Assembly: GCA_947632535.1 (NCBI GenBank)
Contig: CANRPR010000003.1
Location: 1 to 52,518 of the forward strand
DNA length: 52,518 nucleotides
Direction: 5' to 3'
From: an uncultured Clostridia bacterium
GTDB taxonomy: Bacteria; Bacillota; Clostridia; TANB77; CAG-508
This document shows, one piece after another, positions 2,328 to 52,518 of the stretch (position 1 is the stretch's first letter; each line of letters begins with the position of its first letter). The notes under the pieces are model-generated. The model searched no databases, had not been told where the DNA came from, and saw only the letters and a list, made by a program, of their open reading frames with translations. The translations under genes were made by a program, and so were the position numbers.

Positions 2328-2680
2328 TGGTGGAGGCGAGGAGAGTCGAACTCCTGTCCACTAACCCTTCATTACAAACTTCTTCGAGTACAGTTTGTTA
2401 TTAAAATTCCCAATAAAGAAAGTTAACAAACAAACTTTAATTATTAGTATCCTTTAAATACCCCCTGCTTTCAAGGAAAAAGCAGCTTCGTTTCCTACTA
2501 TTTCGACACCTTAATATAACCGTAGGCCTTTATATTAAAGCGTAGCTGCAACTAGGCAGCTAATGCTAATTCATTATTTCTAGCGTTTATTTTTAGTTTC
2601 TCGTTTTTTTAAGTGGCCAACGAGAATCCACTACTCGCTATTTGTAAGTCTAGATTAATGTCGAAACCCATTACGCCCCC
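2328..2680 (-). ncRNA. ssrA: tmRNA (transfer-messenger RNA)
   Basis: Minus strand starts GGGGGCGTAATGGGTTTCGAC (2680 downward) and ends GGAGTTCGACTCTCCTCGCCTCCACCA (CCA at 2330-2328). Internal tag ORF GCT AGA AAT AAT GAA TTA GCA TTA GCT GCC TAG gives predicted tag ARNNELALAA. Confidence 0.93.
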
Positions 2681-18604: not shown

Positions 18605-19603
18605 TTATGCATGACCTTCTAACTGGTCTAAATTGTCTAAAGCTTTTCCTGTTCCTAAAGCCACACATGATACACTGTCTTGTGCTATCATAACATTTAT
18701 TCCTGTTTTTTCTTGCAACAGTTTATCTAATCCATCTACTAAACATCCGCCACCAGTCATATATATTCCTCTATCGCTAATATCTGCTGCTAATTCTGGA
18801 GGTGTTTTTTCTAATACTGAATGAACAGCATCTACTATCATCATTGCTGGTTCTGTTAATGCTTCCATCATTTCACTAGAGTGAATTGTTAGAGTTTTTG
18901 GTAATCCTGTAGTTAAATCTCTTCCTCTTATATCCATTTCCACATCTTGTATTTTAGGATATACACAACCTATATTTACTTTTAAATCTTCTGCTGTTCT
19001 TTCTCCTATTATTAGATTGTGTTTCCTTTTTATGAATTTTACAATTGCCTCGTCAAATTTATCTCCAGCTATTTTTAGAGATGTACTAACAACTGATCCT
19101 CCTAATGATATAACTGCAACATCTGTTGTTCCTCCACCTATATCTACTATCATATTTCCACATGGTTTTGATATATCTATTCCAGCACCTATCGCTGCTG
19201 CTATTGGCTCTTCTATTAAGTATACTCTCCTTGCACCTGCTTTTGATGCTGCATCTATAACTGCTTTTTTTTCTACTTCTGTAACACGAGATGGTATACA
19301 AATCATAATTCTTGGTGCAAAAATAAATTTTCCGCATACTTTATTTATAAAATGTTTTAACATTTTTTCTGTAACAGTATAATCTGAAATAACCCCGTCT
19401 TTTAGAGGTCTTATTGCAACAATATTTCCTGGTGTTCTACCTAGCATTCTTCTTGCTTCTTGACCAACAGCTAAAACATCTCCTGTTATATTGTCTATAG
19501 CAACAACAGAAGGTTCTCTTAAAACGATTCCTTTACCTTTTACATATGCAATTACTGTTGCAGTTCCCAAATCTATTCCTATATCTTGACCAAATCCAAA
19601 CAA
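18605..19603 (-). CDS. mbl: MreB/Mbl family rod-shape protein
   Basis: DIGIDLGTATVIAYV and DIGGGTTDVAVISLGG actin-fold motifs. TTG start at 19603. Confidence 0.9.
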   Translation of the reverse strand: MFGFGQDIGIDLGTATVIAYVKGKGIVLREPSVVAIDNITGDVLAVGQEARRMLGRTPGNIVAIRPLKDGVISDYTVTEKMLKHFINKVCGKFIFAPRIMICIPSRVTEVEKKAVIDAASKAGARRVYLIEEPIAAAIGAGIDISKPCGNMIVDIGGGTTDVAVISLGGSVVSTSLKIAGDKFDEAIVKFIKRKHNLIIGERTAEDLKVNIGCVYPKIQDVEMDIRGRDLTTGLPKTLTIHSSEMMEALTEPAMMIVDAVHSVLEKTPPELAADISDRGIYMTGGGCLVDGLDKLLQEKTGINVMIAQDSVSCVALGTGKALDNLDQLEGHA

Positions 19604-19951
19604 TTATTATCTTTCCTTCCCTATATAGTATGTTACATTTTCGTTACAATTATATTACAATGTTTGTAAAATTTCAACCTATTTTTAGATTTTTTTTGAA
19701 GACTTGGTATATATCTTTTATTATTAATATTATAGTCTTGGACTTTCGCTATTTTGCTACTTGAACAAGACTACTTTTTATGTGTTTATGGCATATGCTA
19801 TGCCAAAGGAATCAAACCTCTTTGATACAAATCCATTGTTATACATTTTTGAACATATCCTCGGTAGTACCCTTAAGTAGCTACCCATCTGGGACAGAAA
19901 TTTTAATTTCTTCAAACGAATACAAATTTTATTCGCTAGTGTATCGAAGTG

Positions 19952-20112
19952 CTAGAACGTGAGCACCGGGCGGAACCCATTATTGTTCCACGCATTGCCA
20001 TTATTCGCATTCGAATTCAACACGCCTGCATTAGCTCTATCATTGCAATTGCCACCGCGATTCAAGAACGATCTGCTAGCTTATTACCGGCTTAATCCCT
20101 ATAATGTTTGGT
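19952..20112 (-). other. non-coding, Asn-codon-saturated remnant of a C-type-lectin/FGE-fold C-terminus; resembles a DGR template repeat
   Basis: Own minus-strand translation gives ASRSFLNRGGNCNDRANAGVLNSNANNGNAWNNNGFRPVLTF*. It is preceded in frame by TAA TAA and has no start. An upstream piece, IIGIKPVIS*, is in another frame. Twelve Asn codons (11 AAT, 1 AAC). Visibly GC-richer than its AT-rich flanks. Confidence 0.5.
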
Positions 20113-20355
20113 ATTTATATACTAATGTATTATAATTTTATAAATTTGTTTTAAAAAAATATTCGGTTTGTTCCGACTATTTTTTAATTTTTCTATTTTG
20201 TTATTAATATGTGTCAAAATCTGTGTTTTATGCATTACATTCTATCTAAAAATTACCAGTTTAAAAAAATATTTTTCGCACATCATATTTATTGAAAAAG
20301 CAAAGAATGTTTTTTCATAATGCAAAATTACAATTTACCAGGAGGTGAAATAATA

Positions 20356-20562
20356 ATGGCATCAAATAATAGTAATATAAAAGCTGTTCCAGAAGCTATG
20401 GACGCTTTAGAAAAATTCAAATATGAAGTAGCTAGCGAAGTTGGTGTAACTTTAAAGGATGGTTACAATGGAAATATATCAGCTAGAGACGCTGGTAGAA
20501 TCGGTGGTAACATGGTAAGAAAGTTAATACAACAAGCTGAAAACCAAATGATTGGTAAATAG
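20356..20562 (+). CDS. alpha/beta-type small acid-soluble spore protein
   Basis: 68 aa with LEKFKYEVASEVGV and GGNMVRKLIQQAE SASP signatures. GGAGGTG RBS before ATG 20356. Confidence 0.92.
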   Translation: MASNNSNIKAVPEAMDALEKFKYEVASEVGVTLKDGYNGNISARDAGRIGGNMVRKLIQQAENQMIGK

Positions 20563-20621
20563 TTTGTAATATAACTATAGTGCTATAATAAGACAGGAAT
20601 ATTATTTTGCTTTTTTATACA

Positions 20622-20654
20622 TAAAAAGGCAGGATTGTGTTCCTGCCTTTTTTC
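20622..20654. terminator. bidirectional intrinsic terminator (SASP gene / XRE gene)
   Basis: AAAAGGCAGGA-ttgtgt-TCCTGCCTTTT with flanking A and T runs. Confidence 0.85.
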
Positions 20655-20671
20655 ACTAAAATCAACATATT

Positions 20672-21085
20672 TTATAAATTCTTATACATTTCTGGCATTG
20701 ACGAAACAAGTTGCATTGATTTTATAAAGTATAAGACTCCTATAATACATAATAGCACTAACATAATCCTTGCAAGCACTATAACTGTATACATTGATAC
20801 TCCCATTAATTTACTTATTGTTTCAATCACTCCTAAATGAATATCATCAACTCCACCTTGAATAGTTTGTTCATGTAATGTTAGTAGTTCTTCATATGGT
20901 TCTTCATATATTTCTGATAGTCTCTTAATTACATCCGTATCTGGATGTGACAATCCTCTTTCCCAGTTTCTTAAATCATTACTTGTAACTTTTTTCATAC
21001 CTATTTTTTCAAGAAGTGCTTCATAATCAAGTCCATTCTTTCTTCTCAAGTATGCTAATCTAGTTCCAAATTCATTATATTTCAT
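20672..21085 (-). CDS. XRE-family HTH regulator with C-terminal transmembrane segment
   Basis: The N-terminal part (FGTRLAYLRRKNGLDYEALLEKIG...) looks like an HTH_3 domain. C-terminal hydrophobic stretch YTVIVLARIMLVLLCIIGVLYFI. Confidence 0.65.
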   Translation of the reverse strand: MKYNEFGTRLAYLRRKNGLDYEALLEKIGMKKVTSNDLRNWERGLSHPDTDVIKRLSEIYEEPYEELLTLHEQTIQGGVDDIHLGVIETISKLMGVSMYTVIVLARIMLVLLCIIGVLYFIKSMQLVSSMPEMYKNL

Positions 21086-21739: not shown

Positions 21740-21950
21740 AAATACCCCCGCCTTAGCCGATAGTTGCCAAGAAATTTTACGGACCTGTACTCACACAGGT
21801 GGGTGCCTACCTGAATACTCATGGGCTTCTTACATAAATGCAAGCATGCACGCCATATCCAGAGGTCAGCTCCCTTTTCCAAAACTTGTAGGTTCTAAAA
21901 TATCTTGTCGCACGTACTACGCAGGGAAATATTATTAACTTATTTAATTT
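21740..21950 (-). ncRNA. structured ncRNA upstream of hpf, probable raiA-motif RNA
   Basis: A roughly 200-nt GC-rich island in an AT-rich spacer, with no ORF support and its own promoter. It ends in GGCGGGGGUAUUUUUUU. Its position immediately upstream of hpf/raiA and downstream of comFC matches the described raiA-motif context. The motif itself was not verified by a covariance model. Confidence 0.5.
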
Positions 21951-22072: not shown

Positions 22073-24058
22073 TTATTCTTCTATTTCTCTTTTTACACTG
22101 CCTCCAAACATTGGTGTTTTATATTGGTCTATAATATATCCTAAATCTTTAGAGAATTCCTTCAACATTACCATTTTTATTGTAATTTCCTTGTTGTTTG
22201 TATAGTCATCCATAATTTGTTTTAACTGTTTTATATTCCTCATTTCTGGTTCAATTTCCTTTGGATATAATTTAACCCTATTTACTAATTTTTCTTTTAT
22301 AGTCATTATATCCTCATTACTTGCACAAGAAATTCTTTGGAACATTTGGAATACATCATAATATTTAAATATTGGTACATTCATACATTCTTGGTCAAAA
22401 CGTTCATAGAAAGTTTCCATTTTCATTGGAATGCACTTAAATATTTCATCAGCTTTCTCCATATACATCTTATCTTTTAGTTGCATATTTAGTTGATTGA
22501 AATGTTTTAAGATTTCTTCTATATCTGCATCTGTTTCACCTACAGTGATTTTTGAAAGTTCTTCTTCTACATTCTCACAATATTTAGAATTTAATGAAGA
22601 TATATTCATTCCATTAAAGAAAAGACTTTTTATTGTTTTTATGTCATAATTTATTAAATCTTTTTTTATAAAATAGCTAAAATATACAAATATTTTTACA
22701 ATGTCAATTAGTTCTAGTCTTCCATTTTTTACATCATCTACAATTTCTTCAATTATGCTTGGGAATTGATCATCATTAATTTTCCAATATTCTTCTGTTA
22801 ATAACCTTTTATATGCTGGTAATTTATCTGTATCTACAGTATTTATAATTACCTCCATGTTGTCCTTAAATACCTTCATATCAAAAATTCTTGTACGCAC
22901 ATATATTTCTATAAATTTGAAGAAACGATATTCTGATTTAAAGTTATAGTAATAATTACTATCAAATTCCTTAATATAGAATTGCCTATTATCTGTTATT
23001 AAAACCCTAGAAGATACTAATATTGCTTTATATTCTTCGTTGTCTTTTATATTTACAAACTTTTCTTTTGTAATTTTTCCTGCTTTTATTTCAAAAGATA
23101 CAGCTATGGTGAATATTAACATAGTTTGTAGTACCCTGTTATTAGTATTTGGATATTGCTGACTTACCATTTCAAATATTTTTCTAAAGTCATTTAATGC
23201 ATGTTTTAAAATTCTTAGGTTTTTAGTTCCACTTTTATTGAATGTAGATATAATTAACCCTGTATTTGCTCTTAAAAATCTAATTAGTTCTGCATTGTTT
23301 TCATATCTCATTAATAATCCGTTTATTATATAATTAAATTCTGGAGCATATTCAAAAGTTTCACCAATTAATTTTTCTTTTATTCTTTCATAATCATTTG
23401 CTTTGTCAAATACATATTCAATTTTATCTCTTATTTTTTCTACCATTGGAACATCATGTTTTTCTAAAGAACCTTCTTTATCCAATAAGTATGTAGCAAT
23501 GAATGTTTTCATTTCCAAATTGCTACTTTTTAATTTTGTAGATAATTCTTTTTCATTACATATAATTATAGTTTTTATATGATCATGTTCAACGAAATTG
23601 TTAATGTAACCTAAAATATCTATAACATCTACATTAGCTCTTTCCAAGTCGTCAAAGCATAAAACTTTATCGTCTGTTGAGAAAAATTCTTCATAATCTA
23701 TTTTATCGCCATTTTGGCTAACTCCAAAAAAGTTTGCCATATCTAATCCAGTTTTTGCATATTCTGGTATTGTTGTTTGATTATGAACATCCATATATCT
23801 TTTTAAGTTTTTATCCATTAACTGGGTAGTTTCAATGAATATTTTTTTACTGATTTCTTCCAAATTAGAAATTCCATATAAAGACATATATATTGGCGTG
23901 TATCTTCTCCCATTAAATTGCATTGTTTCTATTTTATTTCTAATTCTATTATTCCAAAAGTAAGTTTTTCCGCTTCCCCATTCACCATTTATCATAATAG
24001 CATAATCTGTATAATCTGCTCTTACATAATCTAAAATGCTTTCTACTAAATCCTCCAT
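22073..24058 (-). CDS. KAP-family P-loop NTPase (stand-alone)
   Basis: Walker A YAIMINGEWGSGKTYF and Walker B VLCFDDLERA match the KAP NTPase pattern (GxWGxGKT ... DDLDR), followed by a long alpha-helical C-terminal region. Start at ATG 24058 after AAGGAGAGG. Confidence 0.7.
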   Translation of the reverse strand: MEDLVESILDYVRADYTDYAIMINGEWGSGKTYFWNNRIRNKIETMQFNGRRYTPIYMSLYGISNLEEISKKIFIETTQLMDKNLKRYMDVHNQTTIPEYAKTGLDMANFFGVSQNGDKIDYEEFFSTDDKVLCFDDLERANVDVIDILGYINNFVEHDHIKTIIICNEKELSTKLKSSNLEMKTFIATYLLDKEGSLEKHDVPMVEKIRDKIEYVFDKANDYERIKEKLIGETFEYAPEFNYIINGLLMRYENNAELIRFLRANTGLIISTFNKSGTKNLRILKHALNDFRKIFEMVSQQYPNTNNRVLQTMLIFTIAVSFEIKAGKITKEKFVNIKDNEEYKAILVSSRVLITDNRQFYIKEFDSNYYYNFKSEYRFFKFIEIYVRTRIFDMKVFKDNMEVIINTVDTDKLPAYKRLLTEEYWKINDDQFPSIIEEIVDDVKNGRLELIDIVKIFVYFSYFIKKDLINYDIKTIKSLFFNGMNISSLNSKYCENVEEELSKITVGETDADIEEILKHFNQLNMQLKDKMYMEKADEIFKCIPMKMETFYERFDQECMNVPIFKYYDVFQMFQRISCASNEDIMTIKEKLVNRVKLYPKEIEPEMRNIKQLKQIMDDYTNNKEITIKMVMLKEFSKDLGYIIDQYKTPMFGGSVKREIEE

Positions 24059-24130
24059 AAAATTCCTCTCCTTCGTAATATTTTTAGTAAGTTGCAATTA
24101 CTTGCAATTGCTAATTTATATCTGTTTTCT

Positions 24131-51107: not shown

Positions 51108-51225
51108 TCAGAATGTTAGTACTGGACGGAATCCCACATCAATCCATGCTTGACCACCATAGGCTGAATCTCTAAGAACTCCTATCGAGCCAATGTCACT
51201 ACGTGCCCATCCTCCGTCGTGTCAA
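51108..51225 (-). other. GC-rich C-terminal cassette of the FGE/CLec-fold gene (variable-region-like), out of frame with the upstream ORF
   Basis: Own translation of the frame that ends at TGA 51110-51108: ...GGWARSDIGSIGVLRDSAYGGQAWIDVGFRPVLTF*. This is the expected RGG...GFRxVL end of the fold. The annotated ORF leaves this frame near 51215-51219 and stops at 51199. Confidence 0.6.
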
Positions 51226-52518
51226 AAAATCAAAAGCAGCACTACCTATTATTACACAGTCATTATTCCATGTTGTTCCCAATTTTTCCTCTTTATCATT
51301 AATATCTGTTTTCCAACCCGCTGTTGTTCCATTTATTAATCCCCTATAGCTCCAATTTCCTGTTACTTCATTCATTCCTATTCCCTTTTTTTCTGCTAGT
51401 TTATTCCATGTTATTTCTGCTAATTCTTTTCTTTTTTGTTCTGCTTCTATATTTTTATTGCCCATTCCCCATAATGCATCTTGCGTTATAGGTCCTGATA
51501 CTCCAGTTATTGTTATGCTATTGCTTTTTTCTTCATCACTTACTTCATATGTTTCCCAATACTTTACATACTGTGTTTCTAATTCATTTACAGTATTAAA
51601 GTATTTTATTTCTGTAGTACCATGAGTATTACTTTTTCCTTTTTCACTTATATTTTTATTCCTATTATTAAAAAACACTGCTACAAATTCTGATGCTCCT
51701 CCACTCATATCATATATTCCATACACATTTCCTGTTGTACTTGCTAATTGTCCCAATGCTGTATTATAATTATGAGTTCCTTTGTTCCATTCTTCTGAGT
51801 CATATACATTTTCATCATTTGATGTAAATGGTCCAGCACCTGTGTGCAAGTCAAAAGAAGTAATATCCACATCTACATTTCCGTTACTCATAGGAACATT
51901 ACCAAAAGCGCTATAACACAAATATGCTACTGCTCCCCACTCATTATTTTTAATTAAGTGACTATCTACTGTAGTATCCCAACCATATTTGTTTAATGTA
52001 TCATTTTTCATTTCCATACTTTGATATTGGCTTTCTCCTATGGTTATGTGTCTCCAACTTATTGCATCTGGCAATACTTTTACATATGTACTGTCGTCTG
52101 CTTCTGTTACTGATTCTGTTCCTCCTTCTCTATTTCCTACTGCTTTATTTTCACTATTTAATCCACTTGCTTCAAACTTTGCTACCCATATCCCTGTTAG
52201 GTCTTTTTCTCCAAATCTGAATGCTGGATGTACTATTTTTGGTGTCGGTTGGTTTGGCGATACTTGACTTAAATCATAATTATATGTTCCATCATCATTT
52301 TTCGTTACTTCTATTCCTGTTTCCTCGTCTGTTCTTGCTCCATAATCTACTCCGTCTGTTCCTATATTACTTGTACCTTTTAAGAATGTTATACTTATTC
52401 TTTTTGTTTTTGAATTTGTTTCTGCTGGTGTTTCTTCATTTGATGTCTTTGTTCCTTCTCTTATACTATATGCATATCTTGGTATCCATACAAAAAATGT
52501 TGTTATATCTTCCATTGG
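51199..52518 (-). CDS. FGE-sulfatase / C-type-lectin-fold protein (partial, N-terminus beyond right edge; 3' end frameshifted)
   Basis: FVWIPRYAYSI, HPAFRFGEKDLTGIWVAKFEAS and NVYGIYDMSGGASEFV resemble the FGE/SUMF1-type CLec fold (compare GLYDMSGNVWEW). The ORF is open to the window edge. Confidence 0.65.
   Translation of the reverse strand, partial: PMEDITTFFVWIPRYAYSIREGTKTSNEETPAETNSKTKRISITFLKGTSNIGTDGVDYGARTDEETGIEVTKNDDGTYNYDLSQVSPNQPTPKIVHPAFRFGEKDLTGIWVAKFEASGLNSENKAVGNREGGTESVTEADDSTYVKVLPDAISWRHITIGESQYQSMEMKNDTLNKYGWDTTVDSHLIKNNEWGAVAYLCYSAFGNVPMSNGNVDVDITSFDLHTGAGPFTSNDENVYDSEEWNKGTHNYNTALGQLASTTGNVYGIYDMSGGASEFVAVFFNNRNKNISEKGKSNTHGTTEIKYFNTVNELETQYVKYWETYEVSDEEKSNSITITGVSGPITQDALWGMGNKNIEAEQKRKELAEITWNKLAEKKGIGMNEVTGNWSYRGLINGTTAGWKTDINDKEEKLGTTWNNDCVIIGSAAFDFLTRRRMGT

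Follow-up and report, generated by a model that had tools for sequence, protein, structure and literature searches.

The ribonucleoprotein of the Bordetella phage BPP-1 diversity-generating retroelement (DGR) contains an 11-bp avd:Sp duplex, the 'cPRT Stop', together with an adjacent TR:Sp template:primer duplex, a stem-loop, and adenosines, and such elements have been predicted in 207 other DGRs (Handa et al., 10.1101/2023.10.23.563531). The RT-1 to RT-19 motifs are structured RNAs that were defined by their proximity to reverse transcriptase (RT) genes (Weinberg et al. 2017, PMC5737381), and the main text of that paper assigns only RT-10 to a DGR, as the Bordetella phage spacer. Among the DGR architectures described by Wu et al. 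2018, family D comprises Firmicutes DGRs with a MutS-like (MSL) accessory gene (PMC5758913). Dispersed or incomplete DGR loci that are served in trans have been reported for Thiohalocapsa PB-PSB1 (PMC10907252), and for Treponema and others (PMC5758913).

Here we describe a locus that touches on all of these systems, in a 52,518-nucleotide stretch of DNA from an uncultured Clostridia bacterium (the window, meaning the whole stretch that was analyzed). The minus strand at 19707-20100 holds a complete, structurally intact DGR template RNA gene of the MSL-Avd-RT lineage, which diversifies pilin-like C-type-lectin-fold (CLec) proteins in uncultured low-GC gut Clostridia, and this gene stands alone between housekeeping genes, with no RT, Avd, or target gene nearby. 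We put the probability that it is a genuine DGR template RNA module at about 95%, and we conclude with high confidence that the element belongs to a known RNA family (RT-14) and to a known DGR lineage; its solo arrangement is unusual.

The template repeat and its flanking RNA

The most conspicuous part of the locus is a GC-rich, Asn-codon-rich frame on the minus strand (19952-20080) that cannot be expressed; read from 20080 to 19952 it gives ASRSFLNRGGNCNDRANAGVLNSNANNGNAWNNNGFRPVLTF*, and an in-frame TAA TAA stands just before it. The 150-nt bin at 19950-20099 has a GC content of 48%, compared with 29.5% for the whole window. The original prediction had reported the Asn-rich frame, the GC-rich island, and the tandem stops, and all three are confirmed. 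The template repeat (TR) itself (19955-20080, minus strand) consists of 42 codon-like triplets, 12 of which are AAT or AAC (AAY), and 29 of its 32 adenines fall at codon positions 1 and 2 in the frame that matches the target C-terminus. A 37-amino-acid, TTG-start open reading frame listed at the TR is of no consequence.

The interval first proposed for the element, 19952-20112, contains the TR but falls short of the whole feature, which is an RNA gene of ~19707-20100 composed of a 5' duplex strand (AGGGATTAAGCC), the TR, the invariant sequence TAGCACTTCGATACAC, and a ~250-nt structured spacer RNA of the RT-14 family. The 5' strand (20089-20100) is conserved before all family TRs, where the motif preceding the TR reads GGGATTAAACTG in the family and GGGATTAAGCCG in the window. 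The upstream peptide IIGIKPVIS*, previously taken for a second homologous piece, is a mere translation of this 5' motif, and we reject it as a coding remnant given that the RNA pairing strand GGGATTAA(A/G)C(T/C)G stands before every family TR. On the other side of the TR, the near-invariant TAGCACTTCGATACAC (19939-19954) is recognized by the conservation of this flank in family modules, and it includes GATACA (19940-19945), the 5' strand of a long-range helix (LR2) whose partner is TGTATC at 19824-19829.

Just downstream of the TR are two hairpins, H1 (19896-19936) and H2 (19863-19885), identified with RNAalifold and by pair counts. The alignment and pair counts also delimit a spacer core (19807-19829) made up of TGTATC (the 3' strand of LR2), AAAGA, and GGTTTGATTCCT, the 3' strand of a second long-range helix (LR1). 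Folding places hairpin H3 (19789-19805), an A-rich single strand (TAAACACATAAAAAGT), and a terminal hairpin (19730-19772) in the remainder (19730-19805). The Rfam RT-14 model (RF02921) matches 19731-19877 over its full extent (model positions 1-144), with 53.5 bits against a gathering score of 48.1, and a spacer profile built from the family matches the window at full length (nhmmer, E=3.6e-54). We note that the window copy has an extra 6-bp hairpin (CGAATA...TATTCG) before the family H1, within 19896-19936, which is absent from the other 61 modules in our alignment. Upstream of the module there is no conserved promoter at a fixed distance, the region being AT-rich with scattered -10-like boxes only, and no terminator was found after the spacer, so that none separates the template RNA unit from the mbl gene that follows.

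Covariation and integrity of the scaffold

The fold was derived from an alignment of 62 modules, using RNAalifold unguided and then pair counting, and five helices were recovered (LR1, LR2, H1, H2, and H3). LR1 joins the 5' motif (20089-20100) to the spacer core (19807-19818), with 98.9% of cells paired and 8 of its 12 pairs changed on both sides; LR2 joins GATACA after the TR (19940-19945) to TGTATC (19824-19829), with 99.7% of cells paired and three compensatory pairs. Overall, 95.9% of cells are paired, compared with 36-50% in controls with slid partners, and changes on both sides are seen in 32 of 41 pairs; these values were reached by none of 500 shuffles. In the window copy, all 12 pairs of LR1 and all 6 of LR2 are intact, and the predicted fold shows the TR left as a loop between the two. 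Both duplexes have counterparts in the Bordetella phage DGR: the 5' strand of LR1 corresponds to the avd strand of the 'cPRT Stop' duplex, and GATACA of LR2 to a strand of the template:primer duplex. H3 and the A-rich strand after it are arranged like the stem-loop and the adenosines in the cPRT Stop element.

The window copy is well preserved. Of the 41 consensus pairs it retains 38, all 18 long-range pairs among them, against a family median of 40 and a minimum of 32. Among columns with at least 95% conservation in the other 61 modules, 83 of 87 have the expected base in the window, and three of the four departures lie in base pairs that are still paired. At columns 19 and 438, the window has C-G where 60 of the 62 modules have U-A, a change that it has in common with one other module. 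The GC content of its TR (47.9%) is close to the family median (46.2%), with no shift toward AT in its 29.5% GC setting, and when the window copy is folded alone, LR1 and the hairpins form in the minimum free energy structure (z=-2.9). The nearest sampled relative of the module is only 73% identical, and the window TR is 79% and 76.5% identical to those of its relatives L091 and L089, with differences on all four bases. An intact scaffold whose nearest relative is 73% identical indicates that selection on the scaffold has acted along most of a long branch.

Related loci and the search for partners

Relatives were sought in species-representative genomes, using the CLec protein encoded in the window and then an alignment of the RTs found beside its homologues; the RT scan gave 266 confirmed matching stretches, and the best 80 loci of these were kept. 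Their hosts are uncultured low-GC gut Clostridia. A recurrent arrangement, which is the MSL type of architecture described by Wu et al. 2018 (PMC5758913), groups a MutS-domain-I gene with bAvd and an RVT_1 reverse transcriptase gene on one strand, and has on the opposite strand a pilin-like/CLec target gene with its variable region (VR), followed 90-230 nt on by a TR and then by ~250 nt of conserved RNA; the domain assignments of the family are RVT_1 for RT, bAvd for Avd, and MutS_I for MSL. In these relatives, mismatches between TR and VR fall at TR adenines in 16/17, 16/16, 12/12, 22/24, 21/23, and 17/17 cases (90-100%), and the loci are therefore genuine DGRs. The window element is homologous from end to end with their TR-spacer modules (5' motif, TR, TAGCACTTCGATACAC, and spacer RNA), including modules at loci with a verified adenine-restricted TR/VR pair and an RT. 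The proposal that the element is a DGR TR, or the relic of one, is thus borne out by homology that runs from flank to flank with bona fide DGR TRs.

In most of the related loci the TR-spacer module is transcribed convergently to the RT gene and ends 30-150 nt from the RT 3' end, and the two are within ~3 kb of each other in the loci where both are seen. In nearly every locus of the lineage, bAvd and RT are immediately preceded by a gene for a small MutS-domain-I protein (PF01624; for example L092:15296-15667, L114:13697-14134, and L097:8129-8617, with 70+ further loci), which we identify as the MSL accessory gene described by Wu et al. 2018 (PMC5758913). Several loci carry tandem arrays of three to eight TR-spacer units by a single MSL-Avd-RT operon (L216:3346-7763, with eight units; L215:7108-10297, with four; L114:10779-12123, with three; and L236:7128-8338); one unit measures ~470-730 nt in L114 and L216, and the extra TRs in these arrays have no adjacent VR. 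One unit of the L216 array is VR-like, with only two Asn codons, as if the template copy itself had been rewritten.

Other variations on the arrangement were seen. At L092:13409-13755, L159:6173-6497, L170:7128-7506, and L175:3826-4175, target C-termini without Asn enrichment run directly into the full spacer RNA, with no separate TR and no 5' GGGATTAAACTG strand, which could result from VR/TR recombination or from self-templating. Many loci have a GC-rich hairpin, GGGTGCGT(T/A)AGCACCC, between VR and TR (e.g., L176, L179, L188, L209, and L213), and others have the motif AAATACGGG in that position (e.g., L174, L185, and L190-L194). By analogy with the hairpin downstream of the Bordetella VR, these two may be target-recognition elements; both are absent near the window TR and near the tail of the CLec gene in the window. 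We also considered a phage origin for the RT lineage and rejected it, with only three weak RT relatives (33-47% identity) in IMG/VR compared with 266 stretches in species-representative genomes; blastn of the locus against phage records gave no match.

The window does contain one gene of the pilin-like/CLec DGR-target family, which is cut by the window end (51115-52518, minus strand) and whose tail is GC-rich and VR-like. The S10 ribosomal operon comes directly downstream, and neither a TR nor a spacer follows the gene; the tail is out of frame with the body, the shift lying near 51222 and not being repaired by a single homopolymer error. The original prediction had compared the TR with this tail (51115-51225) at the protein level, and accurately so, with all eight Asn positions differing and 12 of the 13 others being identical. 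In the DNA, the agreement drops to 35 of 55 aligned bases, and of the 20 mismatches 12 fall on non-A bases of the TR element, mostly at synonymous third positions in FRPVLTF; over the whole element the tail matches 49 of 104 non-A positions, whereas an active VR would match them all. Because so many mismatches are at non-A bases, we regard the 51.1-kb gene as a family relative rather than the partner of this TR, and it is rejected as the cognate VR.

No other part of the window supplies a partner either, the 49 of 104 non-A positions being the best non-self match to the TR. The original prediction placed the element alone among housekeeping genes with neither RT nor avd in the window, and tblastn with the family RT and Avd agrees: there is no DGR-clade RT in the 52.5 kb (best E=5.8) and no credible Avd, one match of E=0.007 being antisense to a ribosomal-protein gene region, and MSL has no match in the window. 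At least 19 kb of sequence on one side of the module and at least 32 kb on the other, up to the window ends, are free of any RT. Searches of genome, metagenome, and viral contig collections, in which the host is barely represented, with two designs of A-to-N TR pattern and with the copy-specific spacer core returned 0 matches, and protein searches for a VR, based on the TR peptide and on an alignment designed to represent possible VR products, gave no usable candidates at low sensitivity. Exact look-ups of the Mbl, SASP, and HTH proteins found only low-coverage same-strain contigs of 0.6-3.5 kb and contigs of a sister lineage, and the TR open reading frame, S10, and L3 proteins are not on record in such look-ups. 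With the host genome almost absent from the searched collections, these negative searches say little.

A solo template: trans use, alternatives, and known systems

Comparison by blastn with three contigs of the sister lineage (L082, L085, and L086; ~86% nucleotide identity) delimits a 545-nt unit, at 19695-20239 on the minus strand, that the window lineage has and the sister lineage lacks: the block upstream of mbl ends at 19694 and the ssp block starts at 20240. The unit comprises the entire template RNA gene and, upstream of it, ~139 nt that are AT-rich, and its size is that of one unit of the tandem TR-spacer arrays beside RTs in relatives; it probably arrived or separated as one ~545-nt 'TR plus spacer' cassette, of the kind that RTs of relatives have beside them in multiple tandem copies. 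Directly downstream is the mbl/mreB-like gene (18605-19603, minus strand), in the place that the RT 3' end occupies in other family loci, and a promoter-like site at 19649-19677 lies within sequence conserved with relatives. On the other side (20240-21085) are the ssp block (20240-20651; ssp gene at 20356-20562, plus strand), which is inverted relative to the sister lineage, and an HTH_3 gene (20672-21085, minus strand), which encodes a 137-amino-acid product with a hydrophobic C-terminus and is absent from that lineage. In the sister contigs, hpf, ssp, and mbl are co-directional, and there is no TR, spacer RNA, or HTH gene. The ssp inversion and the extra HTH_3 gene mark a local rearrangement beside the element, and no convincing inverted or direct repeats were found that explain the inversion or the insertion. 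None of 80 Mbl loci of other species (species representatives) has the module; gene order differs among these relatives, and since they share only ~90 nt upstream of mbl, they provide no outgroup by which to polarize a gain here versus a loss in the sister lineage. Elsewhere in the window are a 6S RNA (21741-21930, minus strand, 87 bits), which explains a second GC-rich island near 21.8 kb; a tmRNA (2328-2680, minus strand, 164 bits); and, between the 6S RNA and housekeeping genes, a gene for a 674-amino-acid KAP-family P-loop NTPase (22073-24097, minus strand), which is also present in sister contig L082.

Two readings of this solitary gene, use in trans and a decayed DGR, had been set out at the start, and that choice holds; we consider the two about equally likely. 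If the module works as its Bordetella phage counterpart does, the template RNA would be transcribed from the minus strand, the strand just upstream of the TR would pair with the spacer core as the 'cPRT Stop' duplex, and GATACA after the TR would pair with TGTATC of the spacer as the template:primer duplex, the two thereby looping out the TR. An RT-Avd complex encoded elsewhere would then bind the RNA scaffold, prime in cis, and copy the TR while misincorporating opposite adenines, and the cDNA would replace the matching variable region of a remote target gene.

The chance that the module is still used in this way is, in our judgment, roughly even. Several observations lend trans use plausibility. 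First, with the template RNA convergent to the RT gene in most loci, RNA and RT always meet in trans at the RNA level, as Wu et al. likewise argue (PMC5758913). Second, the tandem arrays hold TRs that have no VR beside them. Third, the module of L091 is followed by rplU/rpmA and has no RT within 10 kb upstream, and its TR has a matching VR on another contig of the same metagenome-assembled genome (MAG), A being the site of 15 of the 19 mismatches between the two. Fourth, a family RT is present in at least nine of the MAGs that are nearest to the window when compared by Mbl, and finally, there is published precedent for dispersed loci with remote targets and supply in trans. Two independent low-coverage assemblies of the same strain break at 19958 and 19971, in the A-poor 3' end of the TR, which could be a weak sign of a second TR copy elsewhere.

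A recently stranded relic is a serious alternative, to which we give somewhat less than an even chance. The gene would then be a genuine template RNA gene whose RT and target were lost by rearrangement or through loss of the DGR, and it would be intact because little time has passed. What counts against trans use counts largely for the relic: neither the window nor the searched collections yielded an RT, an Avd, or a cognate VR; module and RT are within ~3 kb wherever both are seen; the site is rearranged, with the inverted ssp block and the extra HTH gene beside the unit; and neither promoter nor terminator was recognized. The only family target in the window is frameshifted, unmatched to the TR, and devoid of the AAATACGGG and GC-hairpin motifs often found beside VRs, which fits a decaying system. 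Set against the relic is the lack of any sign of erosion in the conserved columns (83/87), in the pairs (38/41), or in base composition, and the intact frame and adenine placement of the TR; the window copy also has a compensatory pair of its own, a change that could nonetheless predate stranding.

It is very improbable that the element is instead what is left of a CLec target gene formerly at this site, a pseudogene fragment derived from the 3' end (VR), even with its protein-level likeness to CLec C-termini, including that of the 51.1-kb gene. Its 12 AAY codons are what TRs of the family have, compared with 0-5 in the paired VRs, and it has the TR-specific 5' duplex strand before it and the full spacer RNA after it, both of which VRs with a separate TR lack. 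The TR is also 100% identical, over the 161-174 nt covered, in same-strain contigs from two other samples (L083 and L084), as expected of an invariant TR rather than a VR. The original prediction had noted that an intact gene with the same Asn-rich tail in close relatives would point to a pseudogene, and the sister lineage has no gene at the site. A reading unrelated to DGRs, whether as a chance GC-rich island or as an ordinary small RNA or cis-acting leader of mbl, has next to no probability, as its position directly upstream of mbl on the same strand with no intervening terminator is set against homology to DGR modules at E=3.6e-54 and the conservation, among the 80 species representatives, of only the last ~90 nt before mbl, with none having the unit.

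Returning to the template RNA gene as one that may serve in trans, we tentatively suggest a broader view, which we hold at rather less than even odds: that the DGR of this clade is a dispersed modular system, in which self-contained TR-scaffold RNA genes are exchangeable trans templates for one MSL-Avd-RT machine, each addressing its own unlinked pilin-like CLec gene, and either multiplying in tandem (up to eight copies by one RT) or moving alone to unrelated sites. Should the module be functional, it would show that an RNA scaffold alone suffices to recruit the enzyme in nature, and not only from laboratory plasmids. Should it be only a relic, it documents how DGRs fall apart and is of modest interest.

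The locus shares with the dispersed DGR loci a scattering of components in the genome, diversification there being attributed to an RT and/or TR encoded elsewhere. Those loci consist of target genes, some accompanied by a TR, and have no RT, whereas the window has the template RNA gene only, with no target beside it. We note that DGR searches usually start at the RT and seek a TR within a few kilobases, such that a functional template tens of kilobases away would be missed. Compared with the MSL DGRs, the window has a template RNA homologous to those of 60+ MSL-Avd-RT loci and a member of the same CLec target family, but lacks MSL, Avd, RT, and a matching VR.

The RT-14 model (RF02921) describes only the 3' ~145 nt of the RNA, with the spacer core unpaired, no TR, and no long-range pairs, whereas in the window the core pairs ~270 nt upstream, across the TR (~240 nt in most family members). 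Other RT-14 matches (two in L092, and one each in L159 and L207) occupy the same position, after a TR or the end of a target gene; the window copy differs in having no RT gene near it, its downstream neighbor being mbl. The comparison assigns Rfam RT-14 to a specific DGR lineage.

Relative to the BPP-1 DGR RNA, there is no recognizable sequence similarity, the upstream strand is non-coding in the window but is the end of avd in BPP-1, and neither avd nor brt is adjacent, so that a function for the window RNA is suggested by analogy. What the two share is architecture. In each, a strand upstream of the TR forms 11-12 bp with the spacer, and the 3' flank of the TR forms an adjacent duplex with it; a stem-loop and unpaired adenosines come next, and hairpins closely follow the TR. 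Covariation places the TR-enclosing duplexes of the Bordetella cryo-EM structure in a distant Firmicute lineage as well, and the ~400-nt self-contained template cassette is a natural analogue of the retargetable DGR templates built in E. coli.
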